The notes under the pieces were generated by a model. The model saw only the letters and a list, made by a program, of their open reading frames with translations, was not told the DNA's origin and ran no database searches. Made by a program: the position numbers and the translations under genes. A stretch of DNA of 64,000 nt from Stegostoma tigrinum (Eukaryota), in NCBI RefSeq assembly GCF_030684315.1, contig NC_081370.1, forward strand, positions 44,410,728-44,474,727, in the 5' to 3' direction. This document shows positions 4,851 to 64,000 of this stretch, one piece after another. Every line of letters begins with the position of its first letter. The first letter of the stretch is position 1.

Positions 4851-5734
4851 CCTGTGTCTGTATCATGTTAAATTTAAGGTTACTACTGAATAACAACATT
4901 TGAACTATGTAGACAGTGTGGGAGTAGAAGGTAAGACACTGTGAAATTGGCGTGGGTGATACAGATAAACTAAGTAATTGCACAGATACAGCCTACACAT
5001 TCCTAGTGGGAAGATCCTCAGCCTGTTTAGTTTTAACTGTAATGTTTATTCTCCCTATGTCCTGACTCAATTATATAAAGAAAGCACCCAGTGTTGCTTG
5101 AAAGTCTGATCTTGGAGCTAAAGTATTCATTGCATTGAATATCGTAAATTGGAGATGTGTTTCATTATAAAACTCAATAATAGAATACACCTACAAATGA
5201 AAACTAATCCTTAAGATAGCTGTTGCAAGCTCAATGCAGGTCTTCAACATTATCATGTTTCACCAGGGAATTAAGACAACAAGGTTAAGCAGCTGAGAGA
5301 GATAATGGGAACTGCAGATGCTGGAGAATTCCAAGATCATAAAATGTGAGGCTGGATGAACACAGCAGGCCAAGCAGCATCTCAGGAGCACAAAAGCTGA
5401 CGTTTCGGGCCTAGACTCTTCATCAGAGAGGGGGATGGGGAGAGGGAACTGGAATAAATAGAGGGGGCAGCGGACCGAAGATGGAGAGTAAAGAAGATAG
5501 GTGGAGAGAGTATAGGTGGGGAGGTAGGGAGGGGATAGGTCAGTCCAGGGAAGACGGACAGGTCAAGGAGGTGGGATGAGGTTAGTAGGTAGATGGGGGT
5601 GCGGCTTGGGGTGGGAGGAAGGGATGGGTGAGAGGAAGAACCGGTTAGGGAGGCAGAGACAGGTTGGACTGGTTTTGGGATGCAGTGGGTGGGGGGGGAA
5701 GAGCTGGGCTGGTTGTGTGGTGCAGTGGGGGGAG

Positions 5735-6300
5735 GGGAGATTTTGAAACTGGTGAAGTCCACATTGATACCATTAGGCTGCAGGGTTCCCAGGCGGAATA
5801 TGAGTTGCTGTTTCTGCAACCTTCGGGTGGCATCATTGTGGCACTGCAGGCGGCCCATGATGGACATGTCATCTAGAGAATGGGAGGGGGAGTGGAAATG
5901 GTTTGCGACTGGGAGGTGCAGCTGTTTGTTGCGAACTGAGCGGAGGTGTTCTGCAAAGCGGTCTCCAAGCCTCCGCTTGGTTTCCCCAATGTAGAGGAAG
6001 CCGCACCGGGTAAAATGGATGCAGTATACCACATTGGCAGATGTGCAGGTGAACCTCTGCTTAATGTGGAATGTCATCTTGGGGCCTGGGATAGGGATGA
6101 GGGAGGAGATGTGGGGGCAAGTGTAGCATTTCCTGCGATTGCAGGGGAAGGTGCCGGGTGTGGTGGGGTTGGAGGGCAGTGTGGAGCGAACAAGGGAGTC
6201 ACGGAGAGAGTGGTCTCTCCGGAAAGCAGACAGGGGTGGGGATGGAAAAATGTCTTGGGTGGTGGGGTCGGATTGTAAATGGCGGAAGTGTCGGAGGATG
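5735..6300 (-). pseudogene. PLE ORF C-terminus: Cys linker plus GIY-YIG endonuclease (5'-truncated, open frame)
   Basis: 'PCNRRKCYTCPH...NVVYCI...LYIGETKRRLGDRFAEH...VANHF...LIFRLGTLQPNGIN' within ORF 5382-6380. Confidence 0.92.
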
Positions 6301-6325
6301 ATTTTGAAACTGGTGATTTTGAAAC

Positions 6326-6920
6326 ACACCACCCTACCAACCTCCGGATACAACACATCATCCTCCGACACTTTCGCCATTTACAATCCGACCCCACCAC
6401 CCAAGACATTTTTCCATCCCCACCCCTGTCTGCTTTCCGGAGAGACCACTCTCTCCGTGACTCCCTTGTTCGCTCCACGTTGCCCTCCAACCCCACCACA
6501 CCCGGCACCTTCCCCTGCAATCGCAGGAAATGCTACACTTGCCCCCACACCTCCTCCCTCACCCCCATCCCAGGCCCCAAGATGACATTCCACTTTAAGC
6601 AGAGGTTCACCTGCACATCTGCCAATGTGGTATACTGCATCCATTTTACCCGGTGCGGCTTCCTCTACATTGGGGAAACCAAGTGGAGGCTTGGAGACCG
6701 CTTTGCAGAACACCTCCGCTCAGTTCGCAACAAACAACTGCAACCTCCCAATCGCAAACCATTTCCACTCCCCCTCCCATTCTCTAGATGACATGTCCAT
6801 CATGGGCCTCCTGCAGTGCCACAATGATGCCACCCGAAGGTTGCACGAACAGCAACTCATATTCCGCCTGGGAACCCTGCAGCCTAATGGTATCAATGTG
6901 GGCTTCACCAGTTTCAACAT
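6326..6920 (+). pseudogene. Second copy of the PLE GIY-YIG domain, with a +1 frameshift near 6742
   Basis: ORFs 6279-6791 and 6625-7320 together give the same peptide; 'tgcaacct' here versus 'tgcacct' in the other arm. Confidence 0.9.
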
Positions 6921-7578
6921 CTGCCCTTCCCCTACTGCATCCCTAAACCAGCCCAGTTCGTCCCCTCCCCCCACTGCACCACACAGCCAGCCCAGCTCTC
7001 CCCCCCCCACCCACTGCATCCCAAAACCAGTTCAACCTGTCTCTGCCTCCCTAACCGGTTCTTCCTCTCACCCATCCCTTCCTCCCACCCCAAGCCGCAC
7101 CCCCACCTACTTACTAACCTCATCCCACCTCCTTGACCTGTCCGTCTTCCCTGGACTGACCTATCCCCTCCCTACCTCCCCACCTATACTCTCTCCACCT
7201 ATCTTCTTTACTCTCCATCTTCGGTCCGCTGCCCCCTCTCTCCCTATTTATTCCAGTTCCCTCTCCCCATCCCCCTCTCTGAAGGGTCTAGGCCAGAAAC
7301 ATCAGCTTTTGTGCTCCTGAGATGCTGCTTGGCCTGCTGTGTTCATCCAGCCTCACATTTTATTATCAAGGTTAAGCAGCTGTCTGTCAGTGTGTAGCTA
7401 ATGAATGACTTCAGGCACTTTTCACTATGATGCAGACTTAATGCATCAATTTTCAGGCTGAATCAGCTCCTCCATGTGAGCTAAATCTCATTTTACTGAC
7501 ACTACCCTTTGAAAGAATTAGTTTTTAAGAGCAGTTTTGGTGATTCAATTTGAAGCAAACAAACTGTTTCTGCCGTTG

Positions 7579-7784
7579 TAACAAAGTGTGGAGCTGGATG
7601 AACACAGCAGGCCAAGCAGCATCTTAGGAGCACAAAAGCTGACGTTTCAGGCCTAGACCCTTCATCAGAGTCTAGGCCTGAAACGTCAGCTTTTGTGCTT
7701 CTGAGATGCTGCTTGGCCTGCTGTGTTCATCCAGCTTCACACTTTATTATCTTGGATTCTCCAGCATCTGCAGTTCCCATTATC
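7579..7784. mobile_element. Hairpin PLE-end insertion (family A), 16-bp TSD
   Basis: Inverted arms 7579-7669 and 7670-7784; TSD actgtttc(t)[g/t]ccgttg at 7563-7578 and 7785-7800. Confidence 0.93.
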
Positions 7785-8169
7785 ACTGTTTCTTCCGTTG
7801 GATTATCTGAGGCTCGGTTTAACACTTTTAAAAATGAATCAGCAGATTGGGAAAAACCTATGTTCCATCTAAGCCATAAGGCCATACAGAAGCCTACAAT
7901 TCCACATGTACCCTGTGAATAATTTGGAGCATTTAAATTACCATGCAGTTCTCGCCATGTAAAATAATTTAAATAGCTATGCGCTTAAATAGATCATGTG
8001 CTCCAAAGAAATTGCAGGTAATGGTGCTCACAACCTAACTATTGTAAAGTGACTGAATCATGCTTTCAGGCTTGTGTGATGGACCTTTGAGTTTACTTTT
8101 GATCTGATCCACTTGATGCCACCATTACATCACTGCAAGGTATTCACTGTGCCTCAAGCTCTTTCCCTC

Positions 8170-18127: not shown

Positions 18128-18210
18128 GATAACAAAGTGTAGAGCTGATGAACACAGCAGGCCAAGCAACATCCTAGGAGCAGGAAAGCTGATGTTTCGG
18201 GCCTAGACCC
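18128..18210 (-). mobile_element. Short PLE end (family A), tail-less, truncated in hammerhead stem II
   Basis: 'gataacaaagtgtagagctg...gctgatgtttcgggcctagaccc'; flanked by agcagt on both sides. Confidence 0.85.
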
Positions 18211-18974: not shown

Positions 18975-19190
18975 ATCAGGACCAAAAACAAAGTTGCTGA
19001 AAAAATGGCAGCATCTGTGAAGGTAAGAACAGGGTTACTGTTTCGGGTCAAATGGCTTGCAGTTCTGAGAAAGGGTCACCGGACACAAATCATTTTTTTC
19101 CTTCATAGATGCTGCCAGACCTGCTGAGCTTTGCCAGGCACTTTGTTTTTGTTCCTGATTTACAGAATCCCAGTTCTTTTGATTTCTTTT
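18975..19190. mobile_element. Hairpin PLE-end insertion (family B), diverged
   Basis: Minus arm 'aaaaacaaagttgctg..ggcagcatctgt..tttcgggtc' and plus arm 'gttctgagaaagggtcaccggac..agatgctgccagacctgctgagc'. Confidence 0.75.
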
Positions 19191-26096: not shown

Positions 26097-26174
26097 CTTC
26101 ATCACGAAGGGTCTAGGCCTGAAACGTCAGCTTTTGTGCTGGGCCTGCTGTGTTCATCCAGCCTCACATTTTAT
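26097..26174 (+). mobile_element. PLE family A mini-insert replacing part of CR1 ORF2
   Basis: 'cttcatcacgaagggtctaggcctgaaacgtcagc...cacattttat' sits between CR1 EEVLEV and SLMSVVG. Confidence 0.88.
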
Positions 26175-30612: not shown

Positions 30613-31411
30613 GAATACACTCCCTGCTTGTCATACACAGATTTGCTACCTACAGATTTATGTATTCACAAGGTTGGCCTCAACTCAATTTTGTATCAAA
30701 GTCAATAGGTCTGATGGACCATGCAGTCCTTCATGGCAGATAGCAGATCTTTGTTACAGTGCTCCCTGCATTTTGCGTTATCCACACAAGGTCTGTGTCC
30801 CTATCTCCTGCTGTTAACAAGGATTGGGTATTAATTCATAGTCTCTGTTCTGATCTCCTTCACATGTGGAAATTTTGGCAATATTAAACCCTTCCATAAT
30901 TTTAAAAGCCTCAATTTTAGAAGAATGTAATTTCTTTCCAATGAGATTATTCATTTATTCAAGTGACTTGAGAAGTTGATCATTAGCACTTATAAAATTC
31001 TTTTGCAGTCCAAAGTTTAAACAGTTAAACTGGCCACAGCTGGGACTGCAGAGGTTCTAGAGGATAGTGATATAGCCTGGACTTGGTACATTTGGGATCC
31101 TATAAGGACCAGAGCGTCTGACCCTATTATAGGGGCTTGGTACGTGAGAAAAGCTGGTGGTAGGAAGAAATGGAGGGAAGGTCGCAATGTAGGCCCATAC
31201 AGGAGGCATCCACTTGAGAATCCATCAGCCCATCCAATGAATCCAGCCAGACTGGACGCTTGGCACTAGTTTCCTACCGATTGTTAAGTAGGGGTGTCAT
31301 TTGTTGGTGGGGTGGGTCACCTGACAATCCCTCACTGCTAGTAAAATTATGGTGGTGTGGGGCAAAGTGGATGGATAGACATTGGCAAAAAAGGCTAAGA
31401 ACATGGCACCT

Positions 31412-31543
31412 TTTCTGATGAAGGGTCTAGGCCTGAAACATCAGTCTTTGTGCTCCTAAGATGCTGCTTGGCCTGCTGTGTTCATCCAGCTCCACACTTT
31501 GTTATCTCAGATTCTCCAGCATCTACAGTTCCCATTATCGCTG
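31412..31543 (+). mobile_element. ~130-bp PLE family A end starting at the hammerhead core, 15-bp TSD
   Basis: Begins 'tttctgatgaagggtctaggcctgaaac'; TSD aagaacatg[g/a]cacct at 31397-31411 and 31544-31558. Confidence 0.92.
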
Positions 31544-31559
31544 AAGAACATGACACCTA

Positions 31560-33660
31560 ATGTTATGATTCTTGCCAGTAAACTCTTCTGCACCCTCTCC
31601 AAAGCTTCCACATCCTTCCTATAGTGTGGCAACCATAACAGTGCACTGTACTTCAAATGTAACCTCACCAAAGTCTTCTGGATTTGCAAACATGACTTGC
31701 TAATATTTGTATTCCATGTCCTGACCAACGAAGACATGCTTACCGTGTGGCTTCTTTACCACCTATCCACATGTGTTGCCACTTTCAGGGAGCTATGGAC
31801 TTGGAACCCAAGATCCCTCCATATATCTTAAGAGTCTGGCCACTTACGGTGTACTTTTCTCTTGCATTTGACCTCCCAAAATGCATCACCATTAAACTCC
31901 ATCTGCCATTTCTCGGCCCAACTTTCTAGCTGATCTATATGCTGCAGCATCTTTTGATATCCTTCCTCATGATCCACAACTCCACCAATTTTCATGCAAT
32001 CTGCAAACTTTCTAATCAAACCACCAACATTTTCATTCAAATTGTTTATATATATTACAAACAACAGAGGTCCCAGCACTGATCCTTGTGGAAGATTACT
32101 GGCCACAAACCTTCATTCAGAAAAGTACCCCTCAACAACTACACCTTGACTTCTACAGCCAAGTCAATTTTGTATCCAATTTGCCAACTCACCATGAATT
32201 CTATGCAAGTTAATCTTCTGGGCCAGCCTACCATGAGGGACCTTGTCAAATGCATTAGTGAAGTCCATGTAGAGAATATCCACTGCCTGACCCTTATCAA
32301 CCACTTTAATTGCTTCCTCAAAAAAACTCAATCAAGTTTGTGATACAAGGCTTCCTCTGTACGAAGCCATGCTAACTATCCCTAATTTGTCCATTCTTCT
32401 CCAAATACAAGTAAATCCTGTCCGGTCCAATAATTTCCCTACCACTGATGAAAGACTTTTTTTTTAATACTCATTCACAAGATATGTGTGTTTCTGGCCA
32501 GGCCAGCATTTATTGCCCAGCTGCAATTGAATGTCAACTACATTGCTGTCGGTCTGGAGTCACGTGTAGGCCAGATGAGGCAAGCATGGCAGTTCCCTTT
32601 TCTAAAGGATATTCGTGATAGAGATGGATTTTTCCAGATAATTGACAATGTTTCATAGTCATCATTAGATTCCTAATTCCATATATTTTATTGAATTCAA
32701 ATCTTACCATCTGCCATGGTAGGATTCCAATCTAGGTCCCCTGAACACTACAAAAGTCTTTGGGTTAATAATCTAGCGATAATACCACCAGACCATCATG
32801 ACCCTTAAAGGCTCGCCAACTTATAATTTCCTCACAGTATCCCTGCTGCCCTTCTTGAACTAAGGAACAACACTCCCCTAGGATCTTGTCTGTGACTAAG
32901 AGGATACAAAAATATCTGTCAAGGCACTAGCAATCTCCTGCCTTGCTTCCCTCAGTATCCTGGGATAGATCCCATCAGCAGCTGCGGACTTACGTACCTT
33001 ATTGTTTTTCAAGATACCCAACACTACCTACTTTTTAATATTGTCATGCCTTAGAGTATCAATAAATCCCTCCCTAATCTTACCATCATTCATGTCTTTC
33101 ACCTTGGTGAATACTGATATGAAATACTCATTAAGGAACTAACCCACTTCTTATGGCTCCATACATAAATTCCCTTTTTTTTATCCTTGAGTGGACCTAC
33201 CCTTTCCTTTGTTACCCTCTTGTTTACAATATATGTATAAAATGCTTGGGATTCTCCTTAATCCTACTTCCCAAGGACATTTCATAGCCACTTCTAGCCC
33301 TCCTAGTTTCTTGTTTAAGTTCTCTTGTGCTTCCTTTATATTCGTCAATGGCCTTGATTGATTTCTGTTTCCTAAACCTTACATGTGCTTCCTTTTACTT
33401 CTTAACTCTATTTACAACATCTCTCATAGTCCAAGGCTCTCGAATCTTACTGTTCTTATCTTTCATTCTAGTAGGAACATGTTGGTCCTGAATTACAGTC
33501 AACTGGTTTTTAAAAGACCCCCAATCCAGTTTTTCCAGTTCTTTCCTAATGCTGTTGTAATTAGCCTTCTCTCAATTTACTATTTCCACCCGAGGACCAG
33601 TCTTACTCTTTTCCATAACGACCTTAAAGCTGATAGAATTATGATCACTCATATCAAATT
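31560..33660 (-). mobile_element. Decayed CR1 ORF2, interrupted by a SINE at ~32460-32800
   Basis: ORF 31828-32106 'PQGSVLGPLLFVIYINNL..KFADCMKIGG..WAEKWQMEFN'; 'MSDHNSISFK' near 33640. Confidence 0.9.
32460..32800 (-). mobile_element. SINE with L2/CR1-group tail
   Basis: T-run plus 'ggccagcatttattgccc', 'ggtctggagtcac', tRNA-like head near 32730-32790. Confidence 0.75.
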
Positions 33661-34394: not shown

Positions 34395-35015
34395 GCTATA
34401 CAAGCACTGGTGAAGGTGAATAAAAGATGCCCAAGAATCTTCGCAAAACTGAGCATTTATAACCATAAGGAAAGACTGAATATGCTGGGGAGCTTTTCTC
34501 TAGTGAAGGGAAAGCATTGAGGGAATCTGGACAGATATCTTTCAAACAAAAAATAAAGAACTGGAGATATTGGAAATCAGAAACAGAAGTTCTGAAGAAG
34601 GGTCACTGGGCCCAAAACGTTAACTCTGCTTTCTCTCCAAAGGTGCTGCCGGACCTGTATTTTTCCAGCAATTTCTGTTTGTATTTCGGATCTTTCAAAT
34701 TATGAATTTGATAAGGAATATTTTATAAAGTTGCATCCTGCTGTGGGGAGACCAAAAGCATTAGTCTTAAATATAAGAGGTCACTAATAAATAGGATGGT
34801 AAGTTCACAAGAGAATGGTTAGCATGTGAAAGTTCCTACTGCTGGGAGTAGCCCTGGGTCCAGAGGACAGATGTATTTAAAGGAAAGCCAAGTAAATACA
34901 TGAAGAATAGAGGAATGAAAGGTATCACTATAGGGTTAGATGAAGCTGAATTGAGGCTGTTTGTTTTTAGGATGAACCCTGGCATGGACCTAGTTGGACT
35001 AAAAGGCCTGATTTT
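34395..35015 (+). mobile_element. CR1 3' fragment hosting a PLE hairpin
   Basis: 'ggctatacaagcactggtga', 'gaaagactgaatatgctgggg', tail 'ggactaaaaggcctg'. Confidence 0.7.
34547..34689. mobile_element. Hairpin PLE-end insertion (family B), 10-bp TSD
   Basis: Inverted tail 34547-~34586, plus arm 'agttctgaagaagggtcactgggcccaaaacgttaact'; atctttcaaa at 34537-34546 and 34690-34699. Confidence 0.85.
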
Positions 35016-36934: not shown

Positions 36935-37500
36935 TTGAGGCATTGGAGAATGTGCGAAAGAAATTTGTGAGGATGGTACCAGGAGTGAGAGAATATACAC
37001 ACTACAAAAGATTGAATAGGCTTGGTCAGTTTTCTTTAGAAAAGTTGTGAAGTGGTGTGACAGAGGTTATTAAGATTATGAAAATATTTGACAGTGTAGG
37101 GAAGACATTTCCATAGTGGGAATGCTAGGCCCGAAACGTCAGCTTTTGTGCTCCTGAGATGCTGCTTGGCCTGCTGTGTTCGTCCAGCCTCACATTTTAT
37201 TATCTTGGAATCTCCAGCATCTGCAGTTCCCATCATCTCTGAGGTTATAAACATGATAGCCATTAAGAAATTCAATAGACATTTCAAGAGATACTTCTTC
37301 ACCCAGAGAATAGTCAGAATGTGTAACCATATGCAACAGATTTAGCAAGTGACACATAGATACATTTTACGGGAAATTAAATAGGAATGTGAGAGAACTG
37401 GGAAGTATATGCTGATACGGCTAGTTGAAGAGGGGTAGGAGGATAAACCCTGGCATAGAGGTCAATTAGCCTGAATGGCTTGGCTTCTGTACTGCGGGGA
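36935..37500 (+). mobile_element. CR1 3' fragment hosting a PLE insert
   Basis: 'gaggcattggagaatgtgc', 'ttcttcacccagagaatagt' (FFTQRIV). Confidence 0.75.
37125..37240 (+). mobile_element. PLE family A end starting inside hammerhead stem II
   Basis: 'ctaggcccgaaacgtcagcttttgtgctcc...gcagttcccatcatctct'. Confidence 0.92.
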
Positions 37501-38228
37501 TGATATGTAATACCACAGTTAGAAATTCAACAGTACTTTTAACTTTCAAAAGGTTATGCATTTAAGCAGGACATACAGTTGCTGGTCTCTGAGGAAGGAC
37601 CAGGAAAGTGGGGCCAAATGGGGCCAAATCAGAATGGCCCAAATGGCACCTTTATGTGCTACCATATTGTTTGATAGCCCTCTCTTCAAGGAAGACTCGT
37701 TTCATGTGAAGTATAGAGGCAAGTCCTGCATGGACAATTTATGGTACTTAGAGATTCTTGCATGAATTAGCTTTTGTGTGATTTTATTAGTTGAGTGCAC
37801 TTTTTAAGTGATTTTCAACCACTCTTACTTTATTGATTAGCAGAATGGAACAAGGCTGTGCCCTTCTCAACAGATGTGGAATCGTTGGAAACAATAGTAG
37901 CTAATTTCCACCAGAGTTGAAATGTGTCTTGAGAACTGTATAGTTTACAATCATTCTAGTGAGCTGTTGTGTGATATCTCATGGAGATAAGATTTAATGC
38001 CTTTAATTTGTCTGACCTCCAGTACTAAGTGCACTGAAGGATTTCCAGTTCACAGCTAATGCTGCAGAATACCTTGCAGTGAACAAATTCAGTAAGACTG
38101 CGCCAGCTCTGAGCTCTGTGGAACATTTGTGAATGGTCATGTTTTTGCAACCTTGGACTTCATTTTCCCTAATGTCTTATTTGCTAGCCTTCTGAACACA
38201 GACGTGTAGAAAACCCAACATGTTGACC

Positions 38229-38418
38229 AAAGAATAAAATAATTGTGGATGCTGAAAATCTGAAACAAGAACAGAAATTGCTGGAAAATCTCAGCAGGTC
38301 TAACCTGATCAGTTCTGAAGAAGGGTCACTCAACCTGAAACATTCATTCTGATTTCTCTCCACAGATGCTCCCACTCCTGCTGAGATTTTCCCACATTTT
38401 CGGTTTTTGTTTCAGATA
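38229..38418. mobile_element. Hairpin PLE-end insertion (family B)
   Basis: Minus arm with tail 38229-38305, plus arm 'cagttctgaagaagggtcactcaacctgaaac' to 'tttcagat'; imperfect TSD cccaacatgttgac / cccaaacgtgac. Confidence 0.82.
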
Positions 38419-38846
38419 TCCCAAACGTGACTACTCGCATTATGCTTTGCACCATATCAAACATGTCCAAGTAACATTCATCTGCTTTCCCCTCTTCAAA
38501 TGTATTAAATTCAGACTTCTGATCCATACTTACGAACCTGTTCATGGCCTTACTCTGCTTATTTCCCTAGAATCTGCTAAGATTATCAGGCTGATAATTA
38601 GAATACTACTTATTAAAACCTAGCTTCATTATAAACTAACATTTACCTTTATTAGATACCTTACTTTGCAGAACAGAACAGTGGGAACATTCAGAAATTG
38701 AGCACAATATGGAAAAGAGGCCAATTTCATGGGATGATGGGAAAGTTGTCAGTTTTTAAGCAGCTTACTACAGCAAAACTAAAGCTTTGAAGGTAGTTTG
38801 TGACAAACTGCTTGTGTATGATAAAGGCAAGAAATGAGTGTAGCTG

Positions 38847-40214: not shown

Positions 40215-40760
40215 TTAAGACCATACAAAGCTGAGGCAGAAGAAGGGTCTAGGCCCGAAACATCAGCTTTCCTGCTTCTCTGATGCTGCTTGGCCTGCTG
40301 TGCTCATCCAGCTCCACACTTTGTTATCTTGGATTCTCCAGCATCTGCAGTTCCCATTATCTCCGAGGCAGAAGTAGGTCACTCAGCCCATCGAGTCTGT
40401 TCCACCACTCAATAAGATTATGGTTGATCTGATAATCCTCAAATTCACTTTCCTACCTTTTCCTACAACCCTGACTTCCTTACTGATTAAAAATCTGTCT
40501 ACCTCAGCATTGAATATATCTAATGACCCAGCCTCAACAGCACTGTGTGGTAAATAATTCCACAGATTCACTACCATCAGAGAGAAGAAATGTCTCCTCA
40601 TCTCTGTCTTAAATGCACAATCCATTTTTTCTGAGATTATGCCGTATGGTCCTACACTGTCCCAAACAGGAAATAACCTCACGACATCGACATTATAAAG
40701 TCCTCTAAGAATGTTTTATGTTTTTCTATATTCTAACAAGTACAGGCTCAATCTACAGAT
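40215..40760 (-). mobile_element. CR1 3' fragment
   Basis: ORF 40383-40682 'FKTEMRRHFFS..VVNLWNYLP..VEAGSLDIF..VDRFL'. Confidence 0.85.
40243..40364 (+). mobile_element. ~120-bp PLE family A end starting at hammerhead stem II, TSD gaggcagaag
   Basis: TSD at 40233-40242 and 40365-40374. Confidence 0.92.
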
Positions 40761-45772: not shown

Positions 45773-46513
45773 TTGAATTAACCTCCTATGGTTCAGGAAT
45801 GGGGCTAACATTCTGACAAAGATCGCAATTTTAAACAGCCTTCACTGGCTCGCCATTGCTTGTGGTGTGGGTGAGCAGCCAGTCTCCTGCTTTGCACCGC
45901 CCAAATCCTACACCTGGCAAGATGGCCCAGACGATGGAATGGCACCAACAAACTGGCGTGCCATCTGGCTGTTTATGTTTCCACTCCCACCCATACCTAT
46001 GCTCATCCCCATTCACTGACGGGTAAAAATCCTGCTGATGGTCTTAGATGTTTCATGATGTGGCCAACACCTTACAGCAGCATTGTTGCTCTAACACAAC
46101 TGAACAGGTCTCTCGAGTGAAGACAAAGGCCTTTCTTTGGTTTTGAGAAATGTTACTGAGCAGTTCAAGGGGCAATTAAGATCGAGAAAACTTGGCAATG
46201 TGTTCTCAAACTCTCTGCCAGAAAAGTATTTTGCTCTCAGAACCTTTGTGCAGACAAAGCTTAAGTTGCGCAAACTGAGACCTTGGATTTTTAAACTTTT
46301 CCCCTAGACCTCAGAGCGGGGTATGCGGGTATCTCAGAAAATGATAAAAGTCATCAGATTTTGTGTCTGTACTTTGCCAGTATCTGTATTTGTGGGTGCA
46401 AATGTTTGTGTGCATAAATAATGCACTCATCCCACTATCAATCTTACATAGTCCTATATTTACCTGGTGCAGTGCATATGAGAAGGTTTGGAAAATAGAC
46501 AAGACCAAGACAT

Positions 46514-46719
46514 AACGGGAACTGCAGATGCTGGAGAATCCAAGATGGCAAAGTGTGAAGCTGGATGAACACAGCAGGCCAAGCAGCATCTCAGGAACAC
46601 AAAAGCTGACGTTTCGGGCCTAGACCCTTCATCAGGGTCTAGGCCCAAAACATCAGCTTTTGTGCTCCTGAGATGCTGCTTGGCCTGCTGTGTTCATCCA
46701 TCTTCACACTTTGTTATCT
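46514..46719. mobile_element. Hairpin PLE-end insertion (family A), 13-bp TSD
   Basis: Arms 46514-46635 and 46636-46718; aaga[c/t]caagacat at 46501-46513 and 46720-46732. Confidence 0.93.
46606..46635 (-). ncRNA. Minimal hammerhead ribozyme core (5' strand of stem I lost at the inversion point)
   Basis: Reverse complement reads CTGATGA-A-GGGTCTAGGCCC-GAAAC-GTC-AG. Confidence 0.65.
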
Positions 46720-47429: not shown

Positions 47430-48200
47430 AAGGTCAGGTTATAATTTCAAAATTTACAGATGACAAACTTAGACTTGTGGCAAATAGTAAGGAAAATATT
47501 GACAGATTTCGTGGCAACATTGACAGTCTGCTGACATGGGCAGACACATGGTAGATTCATCTTAATGTAAAGAAGTATGAAGTGCTTCATTTTGGTATGA
47601 AAAAAGTAGGAGAAATAATATAAAACAAATGGTGCATTTTTATTGGGAATGCATGGCAGAAAGACTGGGGTGTGTTCAACAAAAATCTACAAAAGTGGCG
47701 GGACAAGTTGATCATAAAATGTGAGGCTGGATGAACACAGCAGGCCCAGCAGCATCTCAGGAGCACAAGTTGATTCAGACTGCTTTTGCTTAAAAAATCT
47801 TAGAGGAGGCACAGAGTGGAAATCAAGGAAATTATGCTAAACAGAAAGCTTTAGTTATGCCTCAGCTTGATTTATAGGCCTACTTTACGCTGTGTCTAAG
47901 TTTTGATAAAATATCACCAATTAAGGGCATTACACTCCAGGGAAGATACCTTAGAGAAGGGGCAGTTAATGTTTCTTACAGTGCTAATAGGGATGAGAGG
48001 CTGCATTATCTAGAGAAGGTGTAGTTCCCCTTGGAGCAGTAAAGGTTAACAGCTGGTGTTCAATATCATGAAGAGTTTTGATTGTGAGAACAATGAGGAA
48101 TTGTTTCCAGTGGCAGAAGGTTCATTAATTTGGAAACATAGAATTAAATAGATTGGCATATGAACCAGAGATGATATTTTTTGCGATCTTACTTGCATTC
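47430..48200 (+). mobile_element. Highly decayed CR1 RT to 3' fragment
   Basis: 'aatttcaaaatttacagatgacaaa' (ISKFTDD), 'tgggcagacacatgg' (WADTW). Confidence 0.7.
47713..47764 (-). mobile_element. 52-bp PLE micro-insert, 10-bp TSD
   Basis: acaagttgat at 47703-47712 and 47765-47774; insert matches 5338-5390. Confidence 0.88.
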
Positions 48201-51989: not shown

Positions 51990-52466
51990 CACCGCATCCC
52001 AAAACCAGCCCAGTTCGTCCCCTCCCCCCACTGCACCACACAACCAGCCCAGCTCTTCCCCTCCACCCACTGCATCCTAAAACCAGTCCAACCTGTCTCT
52101 GCCTCCCTAACCTGTTCTTCCCCTCACCCATCCCTTCCTCCCACCCCAAGCCGCACCTCCATCTCCTACCTACTAACCTCATCCCACCTCCTTGACCTGT
52201 CCGTCTTCCCTGGACTGACCTATCCCCTCCCTACTTCCCCACCTATACTATCCTCTCCACCTATCTTCTTTTCTCTCCATCTTTGGTCCGCCTCCCCCTC
52301 TCTCCTTATTTATTCCAGAACCCTCACCCCATCCCCCTCTCTGATGAAGGGTCTAGGCCCGAAACGTCAGCTTTTGTGCTCCTGAGATGCTGCTGGGCCT
52401 GCTGTGTTCATCCAGCCTCACATTTTATTATCTTGGATTCTCCAGCATCTGCAGTTCCCATTATCA
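51990..52466 (+). mobile_element. PLE family A pseudo-LTR (~480 bp) with intact hammerhead and full tail
   Basis: Near-identical to 6933-7366 plus the tail 'ttggattctccagcatctgcagttcccattatc'. Confidence 0.93.
52339..52370 (+). ncRNA. Minimal type I hammerhead ribozyme (PLE-associated), predicted cleavage after GUC at 52368
   Basis: ct-CTGATGA-a-GGGTCTAGGCCC-GAAAC-GTC-ag: conserved core, stem II, loopless palindromic stem III (ACGT). Confidence 0.75.
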
Positions 52467-54114
52467 CTGCCATCCTTACCTGGTGTGCCCTGCATGTGAC
52501 TCCAGACCCACAGCAATGTGGTTGATCCTTAACTGCCCCCTGGGCAATTAGGGATGGACAATAAATGCTGCCTAGCCAGTGATGCCCTCATCCCATGAAT
52601 GAATGGAAAAAAAGCTAAGGAGAGCATATTTAGTTGGTGTCGATGGTGAAATGGTGATAATGTTACTGGAATAGTAGCCCAGAGGCCCATGCTAATGATC
52701 AGCAGCAAATTCCCTCATGGCAGCTAGTAAATTTTAAATTCAATGAATAAACATTGTAAACTTAAATCTAATTCCAATGACGATGAACATGAAACATTCA
52801 TTTTTCTTTGTTGTTACTGTGAAAATGTACCTTAGGTTACCTCCAGAAAAGGAAATATGCCATCCTTACCTGTTTGAGAAAATGGTTGAGCAAGCCTTTC
52901 AGTTCGATGCCAGTTATACTGCTGTTTCTTCACTGTTGCTGAGACCAAATCCTGGAAAATCTTTACTTAAAAGTACTATTGGATACACCTACCTCCACAG
53001 CCTGCTGTGGTTCTGGGCTACCAAATTTCACCTGGTTGCTGTGATCCATTAGTATCTTAAATTGGGGCAACTTGAGGCCAAAATTGGCCACAAAAATAAC
53101 TTCATTGCAAATGGATTGGTTAAGACTGAAGTATTAGTCTGATCTAAAATTGGTTTTGATTGAGTTTGGGCTAACGTGAAATGTTCCTTATGAATTGTCC
53201 AGTGGTTGTCCACCATGCAACTGGAGCAATAAGCTCCACAACATATTCGGTTCCTGAGTTTAGCAAAAAGCAAGGGCAAAATAAAAGACAATTAGGCAAA
53301 GTAAAACATACCACAAATTGTGATCAGAGCGAGTTTACAAAATTGTCAATCAGAATTTACAAGTATGTCCAAACTTAACAATTGTGTCAATTTAAAATGT
53401 GGAAGATAAAATGTGCTGATTTATGCAGGTAGTCAATATGAGGAAATAGTTACAATGTACCAATAAAAAAAACTTCAAGAATACTTACACTAAATTTACT
53501 TGACAAGGAATTATAGAAAGCCCAGCTGGGAATTAACACCTGCATATCATCAATACATTATATCCAAAATTTGTAGGAACAATGAGTCAACAAATATGTG
53601 AAGCTAGAGTATGGAGAGGAAAATTTATAAGTAGCCAATAAGAGGAAATAGTTACAATGTACAATGAATTTATTTCAAAGGGCTTGTGTGTGAAATGTAA
53701 CATGAGATTTGAACAGACAGACAACTCAAAGATCACAAAGAAGGGATTCTTTATCCCACTAGCGTCTGGCCATTACCAAATGAAGGAAAATTAAAGATAA
53801 ACAAGGATCTATTTACAGTATGTCCATGGAACTAACTCTGCAGGTTACATTGGGCAGAAGAATCTTTTCTCTACCTGCTCCCTGTCCATCAAAAACACCT
53901 TTTAATCCTCTCCCAAGAACCCATTTGACTTCTCCAGCTGCAGGTGAAGGTCACTGCGAACTGCTCAGCTCCTTCGCTCATTACCCTCCACAACTGTCAC
54001 CACCTCCTGCTGGAGGTCCCTTATGCATGACTAATAGGTTTAATTGAACTTTGGTGGTTAGAATGTTCAAATCAGTATTCTGCTCTGGCATCGAACTGGG
54101 TTGTGATGATAAGA

Positions 54115-59179: not shown

Positions 59180-59710
59180 ATTGTCACTGTCAAAAAGCTG
59201 TCCATTATTGAAACCTATAAGATTTCTAGGAAGAGAGATAATGGGAACTGCAGATGCTGGAGAATCCAAGATAACAAAGTGTGGGGCTGGATGAACACAG
59301 CAGGCCAAGCAGCATCTTAGATTTAAGATGTTGCTTGGCCTGCTGTGTTCATCCAGCCCCACACTTTGTTATCTAAGATTTCTAGGGAGCCTGACAGGAT
59401 AGATGGTGAGATGTTTCCTCTTGTCGGGGAGTCTAGCCCCAAGGGGAGCACAGTTTAAAAAAATAAAGGGTCACCAGCTTAAGTTGGAGATGAAGAGAAA
59501 TTCCTTCACAGAGGGCTGTTAGTGTTTGGAATTCCCTTTCACCGCGAGGCTGATTATTAAAGATGGTGTTGGAAAGCTTTTTGATCTATAATGCAGTCAA
59601 GGGTTACAACAGCAGCAATGGAATTAGGTCATAATCAGATCAGCTATGATCTTATTAAATGGTGGAGCAGGCTAACGGTGATGAATGCTACTCTGACTCC
59701 TATTTCTTAT
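59180..59710 (+). mobile_element. CR1 3' fragment hosting a PLE hairpin
   Basis: 'attgaaacctataagatt' (IETYKI), 'gagatgaagagaaattccttc', tail ending 'ctcctatttcttat'. Confidence 0.75.
59231..59373. mobile_element. Hairpin PLE-end insertion (family A, no ribozyme), 13-bp TSD
   Basis: taagatttctagg at 59218-59230 and 59374-59386; arms fold around ~59320. Confidence 0.93.
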
Positions 59711-60494: not shown

Positions 60495-60632
60495 ACAAAA
60501 ACTGACAGAACTGAGGATGCTGTAAATCAGAAACAAAAACAGAAATTGCGAGTAAAGCTCAGCAGGCTTGGCAGCATCTGTGGTGAGAAATCAGAGTTAA
60601 CATGTCGGGTTGAGTGACCCTTCCTCAAAACT
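60495..60632 (-). mobile_element. ~135-bp PLE family B end starting at the hammerhead
   Basis: Reverse complement reads 'agttttgaggaagggtcactcaacccgacatgttaactctg...atttacagcatcctcagttct'. Confidence 0.82.
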
Positions 60633-63603: not shown

Positions 63604-63721
63604 AAGAAGGGTCCCAACCTGAAACGTCAAACTTTCCTGCTCCTCTGATGCTGCTTGGCCTGTGTTCATTCAGCTTCACACCATGTTATCTCAGATTCTC
63701 CAGCATCGGCAGTTCCTACTA
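63604..63721 (+). mobile_element. ~120-bp PLE end flanked by a 41-bp direct repeat
   Basis: 63563-63603 and 63722-63762 are 39/41 identical. Confidence 0.9.
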
Positions 63722-64000
63722 ACACTGAATTAGTTTGCAGCTTTGGTGAATTTAAGGAGTACTTTTCAACTAGTTAGTATCTTTAGTCTGTTTATTCCTT
63801 CATTACTTATCCTTCATAGTTTTCTTGCTTACCACAGCTGTATCCTCTTTGCCTCATTTCAGTTAACTACCATCTCCTTTGTGCAAAAAAAACTTTATTT
63901 CGCAGAATAATTTTCATTTTATGGTGTGAGAAATTCATATGTATTAATGACTTACTTGAGAACATTTCTTTTGTGGACATTTCCATTCCAATACAAACAT

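Follow-up and report, generated by a model that had tools for sequence, protein, structure and literature searches.

Short Penelope-like insertions in the Stegostoma tigrinum genome begin at the edge of a predicted hammerhead ribozyme

Introduction

At 31397-31558 of a 64-kb window of the Stegostoma tigrinum genome (3.2 Gb; the window is the whole stretch analysed, C20:44410728-44474727), about 133 nt of inserted DNA lie inside a 15-bp TSD, begin just before CTGATGA and finish with a conserved tail. The insert is the 3′ end (pLTR) of a Penelope-like element (PLE) with RT and GIY-YIG, as judged from the sequence it shares with the ends of longer copies in the window, at 5298-7367 and 51991-52469, whose upstream part codes for an endonuclease segment of GIY-YIG type. 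Why should so short a copy begin at a ribozyme? A sequence-only reading of the window had noted that other short insertions begin in the same way, and had proposed either that RT stops at the folded ribozyme or that a short hammerhead-headed RNA is mobilised in trans as a SINE.

Results

The locus and its relatives in the window

Positions are counted from C3, the first C of CUGAnGA, taken as 0; in family A the cut is predicted between +27 and +28. We recovered 24 arms of two families, A and B, in the window (Table 1), and 14 of them end at the ribozyme edge (10/17 A, 4/7 B). The remaining ten end upstream (-36, -46, -344, -920, -953) or downstream (+33, +41, +44, +60, +73). All 14 arms listed by the sequence-only reading were present where it had placed them, and its estimate that the stub 5′ ends lie 15-35 nt upstream of the cut site holds. 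Directly adjoining the insertion is a different interspersed repeat (31578-32458), which we take to resemble a CR1-type LINE. The hammerhead core of the insertion was defined with the motif of PMC4209133; this copy has lost the helix-III palindrome through two CpG-type changes (+19, +25).

Table 1. Features of the window, with the 5′ ends of arms counted from C3
Feature	Position	Strand	Remark
Left TSD, 15 bp	31397..31411	+	1 mismatch with the right TSD; last 3 nt overlap the possible element 5′ end (microhomology)
Family-A stub, tailed 'L' form	31409..31543	+	5′ end between -6 and -3 from C3
Arm of this stub, family A	31414		-1; exact reach -6
Minimal type-I hammerhead core	31415..31442	+	CUGAUGA, bulged A, 4-bp stem II, GAAA, NUH; predicted cut after 31442
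Tail of ~36 nt, between the short (+92) and long (+130) 3′ ends	31508..31543	+	two-peaked 3′-end histogram
Right TSD	31544..31558	+	pairs with 31397-31411
Head-to-head pair of long 5′-truncated family-A copies (-920 tailed, -953 short)	5298..7367	.	encodes GIY-YIG region
Head-to-head stub pair, -2 short arm and +7 tailed arm	7579..7788	.	arms at 7670 (-2) and 7667 (+7)
Older family-A stub (+8)	18128..18210	-	
Family-B stub (-5)	19060..19190	+	inverted arm upstream; end approximate
Family-A stub (+5)	26106..26174	+	internal deletion
Family-B stub (-4)	34588..34699	+	end approximate
Family-A stub (+12)	37125..37242	+	
Family-B head-to-head pair	38228..38425	.	arm at 38308 ends at -7; tailed arm lies inverted upstream; approximate ends
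Family-A stub (+2)	40239..40366	+	14-bp TSD overlapping the 5′ end
Head-to-head stub pair, 0 tailed arm and +7 short arm	46508..46719	.	arms at 46635 (0) and 46634 (+7)
Family-A stub of cut-site class (+33)	47710..47768	-	10-bp TSD
5′-truncated family-A copy, reads through the ribozyme (-344)	51991..52469	+	
Head-to-head pair starting downstream of the cut site (+41/+44)	59234..59383	.	
Family-B stub (-4)	60496..60632	-	end approximate
Older family-A stub (+5)	63606..63728	+	

The parent elements

In longer family-A copies, ORFs reach 822 aa and comprise RT motifs, a Cys-rich linker and a YCIH...LYIG endonuclease segment. Pfam RVT_1 matches this ORF at E=2e-4, below its curated cut-off; no GIY-YIG domain was found in it with Pfam, so that the endonuclease call rests on motif reading. 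Read in this way, the element has the single ORF, with RT and a GIY-YIG at its C terminus, of an endonuclease-bearing PLE. The linker that joins RT to EN is of the form CxxxxCxxC, Cys-rich and zinc-finger-like as in the Neptune/Nematis clade, its exact Cys spacing being presumably that of the clade. Such a Cys-rich, zinc-finger-like linker between RT and EN is given as a Neptune/Nematis feature (PMC8557442). The family also shows a pLTR derived from a partial tandem, an optional tail of 30-40 bp and an inverted 5′-truncated copy. Full-length copies measure about 3.6 kb; their first ATG is located about 40 nt beyond the tail of the upstream pLTR, and they differ in the copy number of a tandem repeat in the N-terminal part of the ORF (L141:1370-1480).

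Family B likewise includes long copies with RT/EN homology (L203, L204, L216), and the sequences upstream of the ribozyme are unrelated in the two families. Since both have long RT/EN-bearing copies, the short inserts of A and B are the 3′ ends of autonomous Penelope-like elements. The sequence-only reading was thus right on the PLE origin and the two families and, as far as motif and pairing go, on the minimal hammerhead.

The hammerhead motif

The motif possesses CUGAnGA, a bulge, a stem II with G10.1-C11.1, GAAA, NUH and a palindromic helix III, that is, the elements of a minimal type-I hammerhead. Stem II is paired at 95.7% and stem I at 81%, with weak covariation (one pair with a double change). 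Rfam returned no hammerhead family in the window at E <= 10, and the call consequently rests on sequence and pairing, which fit a predicted self-cleaving minimal hammerhead as described in PMC4209133.

A pile-up of 5′ ends at the ribozyme edge

The pile-up was measured over 1.264 Mb, namely the window, 100 kb beside it and 22 blind-chosen 50-kb blocks. Among 267 family-A-like arms, the 158 with at least 88% identity in the 3′ part ('young' arms) were used, and the 109 below 88% did not enter the hazard table. Of the copies of both families, about half are stubs of 95-135 bases that start about 4 bases before the hammerhead core. In family A, 61 of the 130 young arms that reach +13 end at -10..+13, a hazard of 19.6e-3 per nt compared to about 1e-3 in the other long bins, or about 14-18 times the background. 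The peak of 5′ endpoints expected from the sequence-only reading is borne out beyond the window, where 146 young A arms give 54 ends at -10..+13 for 3.4 expected (Poisson p ~6e-45). Among the 90 family-B arms, 53 of the 65 at risk end at the ribozyme edge. In all, 123 stub arms were counted in the 1.264 Mb, which extrapolates to roughly 3e5 per genome.

When the exact upstream reach was taken, the mode fell at -4 in both families (14/48 A, 9/43 B) and the edge was sharp at -7, with only 1 of the 91 arms of A and B reaching further. Family A presents a second peak at +27..+44, starting from the predicted cut site, with 22 ends observed and 3.4 expected, and between the two peaks a gap at +14..+26 (1 end for 2.2 expected). 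Family B has no clear gap, with 10/75 ends at +14..+25 and 6/81 at +26..+39.

We considered an alignment artefact, as divergent upstream sequence of older subfamilies would break the alignment at -1. The peak stayed under the controls, which were, for A, the limit of at least 88% identity and a re-measurement of the exact reach in which long copies supplied the common upstream contexts and, for B, three separate long references with the furthest end kept. Some near-identical loci have identical flanks (C1b 25657/48311; C2 38653/39394; L242/L243); they are segmental or assembly duplications, each counted twice in the raw tables.

The -4 base in B is the A of TCAGTT, and in A it fits a polypyrimidine initiator; these consensuses being degenerate, the likeness was not counted as evidence. 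Upstream of the family-B ribozyme, between about 26 and 13 nt from it (L215/L217/L207), lie what we take to be a branch-point-like and a 3′-splice-site-like motif, and in D. virilis Penelope an intron ends at the ribozyme (PMC4209133). A splice-acceptor origin of the stub 5′ end was rejected, because the stubs share no common upstream exon and AG does not precede the modal end.

Structure of the insertions

Two positions, about +92 and about +130, account for the 3′ ends, and 97 of the 158 young A arms sit in head-to-head pairs. These pairs associate one tailed and one untailed arm in 66 of 68 cases in A and in 10 of 14 in B, an arrangement found also in all eight full-length insertions with a complete upstream inverted arm. 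TSDs flank 48/56 pairs compared to 13/79 single arms. For the stubs themselves, a TSD score of at least 9 was reached by 19 of 23 stub-stub pairs and 4 of 20 single stubs (random controls, 1.25%), so that the earlier remark that many copies have a TSD of their own applies mainly to paired insertions.

The two arms of a pair belong to the same length class. Among 48 classified pairs, 21 are stub-stub, 17 long-long, 7 cut-cut and 3 cut-stub, and none is stub-long, whereas 15.9 stub-long pairs were expected by shuffling (minimum 5 in 20,000). Paired arms are usually of the same haplotype (0.877, compared to 0.612 after shuffling), and some are identical over more than 1 kb (1288/1288). In 3 of the 48 pairs, by contrast, 3/3 or 3/4 of the differences between the arms are subfamily-diagnostic alleles (p 2e-4 to 1e-3 each): C20dn 12893, C17 38014 and the pair of the window at 7670 (7579-7788), where 3 of the 4 sites that differ between the arms have alleles of different subfamilies. 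Two further pairs were left out of this count, C6 30558 (two tailed arms, nested) and C3 39910 (weak, p=0.036). The allele patterns suggest that two RNAs took part in one insertion event; since a fold-back cannot give different subfamily alleles, these arms are not simple fold-backs.

Many pair junctions use microhomologies of 2-4 nt. In three stub-pair junctions (C14:49066, C1c:38669, C9:20182), a short stretch of the stem II region has been copied again from template, as if, on reaching the template end, RT had jumped back.

Long copies and the second ribozyme

Behaviour at a second ribozyme was followed in 30 copies, the top-scoring ones in which the ORF start is present and the sequence runs on into the upstream pLTR. 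Of the 26 copies at risk, only 1 has its end at -10..+13 of the second ribozyme, compared to 61/130 at the first pass (Fisher p = 1.3e-5); the sole hit extends only 472 nt into the ORF, and two of the 26 represent a duplicated locus. Three second-pass copies end at +28..+39.

Within 20 ORF-start-bearing insertions, the repeated 5′ and 3′ parts of a copy differ at 97 of 14,096 sites (0.69%), compared to 1.67% between copies, and several are nearly identical (2/2114, 2/1202, 0/871). This fits either rolling over a circle, as PMC4209133 proposed, or the copying of a tandem that was already there. Three of the 20 (L265, L266, L271), with an internal mismatch of 1.7-3%, are not explained by a single circle. 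One insertion (L272, G000:C12:92173800-92179401) repeats an internally deleted family-A unit of 1.77 kb head to tail for about 2.4 turns, with a hammerhead in each unit and 0/702 mismatches between the parts compared; it looks like a rolling copy of a non-autonomous derivative.

Stubs and long copies intermix

Could the stubs be a discrete SINE-like family, descended from short hammerhead-headed masters and moved in trans by the PLE protein? Their very high number (the 123 arms counted above), their fixed 5′ end and the composition of family B, with 53 stubs and 8 arms extending beyond -58, would fit such a family, as would the unequal stub:long ratios among haplotypes (chi-square p = 0.015). 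Nevertheless, a poorly resolved tree (70 rows, 117 columns) that combines 34 stubs with 36 long copies shows 20 label changes compared to a shuffled mean of 23.5 (48/500 as low), and two sets of identical rows span the stub and long classes. At this low resolution the stubs intermix with long copies, forming neither the independent clades that the SINE proposal of the sequence-only reading would imply nor a lineage apart from their autonomous partner. Each of the four common haplotypes contains both classes, all 21 stub-stub junctions differ, and 43 non-arm stub flanks revealed no common 5′ flank or 5′ transduction, except one pair at 69%. Moreover, the stubs are devoid of the ORF-side sequence beyond the tail that the anole protein needs (PMC11167929). 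We consequently give a family amplified on its own little chance of being the explanation. The other half of the proposal fares better: the data agree with a short RNA headed by the hammerhead as template, though one made by the autonomous element and not by a family of its own.

Discussion

How, then, do the stubs obtain their 5′ end? The ends of both families show a sharp edge at a fixed distance from the core, with a second peak from the cut site onward; each pair unites one tailed and one untailed arm of the same length class, and the second ribozyme is read through. We think it probable, though far from assured, that the stubs result from run-off of RT, which starts in the tail and leaves the template at the end of a linear RNA whose predicted 5′ end is about 4 nt before the core.

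In this process RT would bind near the ORF start, begin at two internal sites, +92 and +130, and extend both nicked target strands, for which the anole element offers an in vitro precedent (PMC11167929). It would then copy toward the RNA 5′ end, with an outcome set by the template. If the RNA is linear and uncut and begins at the ribozyme edge, most likely the transcription start, run-off after 95-135 nt would yield the stubs. On an RNA cut at its 5′ ribozyme, RT would stop from +28 onward and produce the +27..+44 class. On a circular or tandem RNA, continuous across the ribozyme, it would proceed into the 3′ UTR and the ORF, and long copies as well as partial tandems would arise. Finally, the two cDNA 3′ ends would be joined head to head, or a single cDNA end fixed.

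Background from other PLEs bears on these predicted RNAs. The internal promoter of D. virilis Penelope, of the Inr+DPE type, starts transcription in the pLTR (PMC2377424), but that start lies 46 nt and an intron upstream of the ribozyme, not adjoining it (PMC2377424, PMC4209133). A circular RNA template for PLEs has been proposed (PMC4209133); for the anole element, RNA-seq reads at the cut site were looked for and not found (PMC11167929). This and the distance in D. virilis speak against our reading, as do two observations on the stubs. No cap-derived G signature was seen, G being the first unmatched base in 15/48 A arms and 11/43 B arms, and the stub:long ratios are unequal among haplotypes, as given above. 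The second peak could have other origins as well, either a hairpin of the monomer pairing 0..+5 with +24..+29, or the AGCT palindromes at +28 and near +37, which could favour joining.

The sequence-only reading had RT stopping at the folded ribozyme. In its fuller form, RT would stall or switch template at the first folded, dimeric or protein-bound ribozyme of a long or circular RNA, the second RT would be blocked behind it, and the second pass would be free as the RNA is by then hybridised to cDNA. Indeed, the end position is fixed relative to the core in two families, at least 3 of the 48 pairs use two templates, as a two-RNA complex would, and the anole ribozyme needs protein to cleave, so that a protein may sit on the ribozyme (PMC11167929). 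A hybrid-protected template would also give the 0/48 mixed pairs and the 1/26 second-pass stops; both results fit a first-pass stall, since the first cDNA on a circle would keep the ribozyme unfolded. Against it, the stops are located 5′ of the core, after stem II and helix III have been copied. The stub ends lie beyond all core helices, where the remaining stem I amounts to 2 bp in A and 4 bp in B, and the zone in which stem II should block RT holds 1 end for 2.2 expected in A (+14..+26), although 10/75 fall at +14..+25 in B. The position of the ends past the core, the shared length class of the pairs and the rarity of second-pass stops thus favour a template end over a stall, which appears weakened and which we regard as unlikely.

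It is improbable, in our estimation, that the position is fixed by biased joining, with self-complementary bases near stem II and upstream pyrimidines letting cDNA ends anneal or fold back: the 2-4 nt microhomologies, the three stem II re-copies and the prevalence of one haplotype within pairs agree with it, but unpaired stubs end at the same place, B has the same mode without a pyrimidine tract, the two-subfamily pairs cannot be simple fold-backs, and the upstream edge at -7 is sharp.

Returning to run-off, we may tentatively go one step further, to a reading that we rate as possible but hold with less than even confidence. The genome would be a countable record of three PLE RNA species, copied by a dimeric complex that primes both strands and sometimes holds two RNAs. 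Here the uncut transcript would give rise to about half of the cDNAs and would be a dead end, by analogy with retroviral strong-stop DNA; the ribozyme-cut linear form would give the +28 class; and the ligated circle would be the only productive template, rolling past unit length and regenerating the pLTR. If true, the endpoints would provide evidence of cutting by the PLE hammerhead in vivo, and circularisation would decide between junk stubs and full transposition.

Already in print are the class of element and its ribozyme, as well as the inverted copy and the tail. As in EN+ PLEs of the Neptune/Nematis type (PMC8557442, PMC3846280), an ORF with RT and C-terminal GIY-YIG accompanies a pLTR with a hammerhead, 5′ truncation is frequent, an inverted 5′-truncated copy lies adjacent, TSDs and partial tandems occur, and a tail of 30-40 bp is found at one end only; however, in the accessible text of these papers truncation is not described as peaked at the ribozyme, and stub, cut and long classes or two-template pairs are not reported. 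The anole Poseidon element PAc resembles ours in its two internal RT start sites bracketing the tail, its predicted dimer, the cutting and extension of both target strands and the ribozyme just upstream of the start sites. It differs in that its ORF starts inside the ribozyme, whereas the first ATG of family A comes past the tail, and the study maps the 3′ (start) ends, a map of 5′ ends not being found in the text accessible to us (PMC11167929). Metazoan PLE hammerheads (PMC4209133) share the core, the bulged nucleotide, G10.1-C11.1 and the palindromic helix III; they are mostly dispersed singles, 'probably related to truncated PLEs', with dual motifs on opposite strands, as here, and endpoint statistics and sharks were not found in the part of that paper available.

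Animal non-LTR retrozymes (bioRxiv 10.64898/2026.07.22.740005) are likewise PLE-pLTR-derived and non-coding, with a type-I hammerhead, and the survey includes one cartilaginous fish and notes dispersed monomers. Retrozymes are head-to-tail tandem repeats of hammerhead units, whereas the stubs are single or head-to-head; the supplements of that survey may list related monomers. One head-to-tail duplication was seen, at C2 15375/15427. An endpoint pile-up or map at the ribozyme was not found in the freely accessible literature searched.

The pile-up is real and highly significant, and it refines the mechanism within a known class; it does not define a new system. It nonetheless offers a testable clue to how Penelope-type elements move, as the end map gives coordinates to look for: an RNA 5′ end around -4, another at +28 and, at that latter position, a circle junction. 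The map also accounts for the short hairpin-forming inserts, roughly 3e5 per genome by extrapolation from 1.264 Mb, for which Rfam gives only weak matches to unrelated microRNA precursor families. The best such matches in the window (6250-6409, 7632-7696 and 59281-59362, all below the gathering score) are the palindromic centres of head-to-head PLE pairs.
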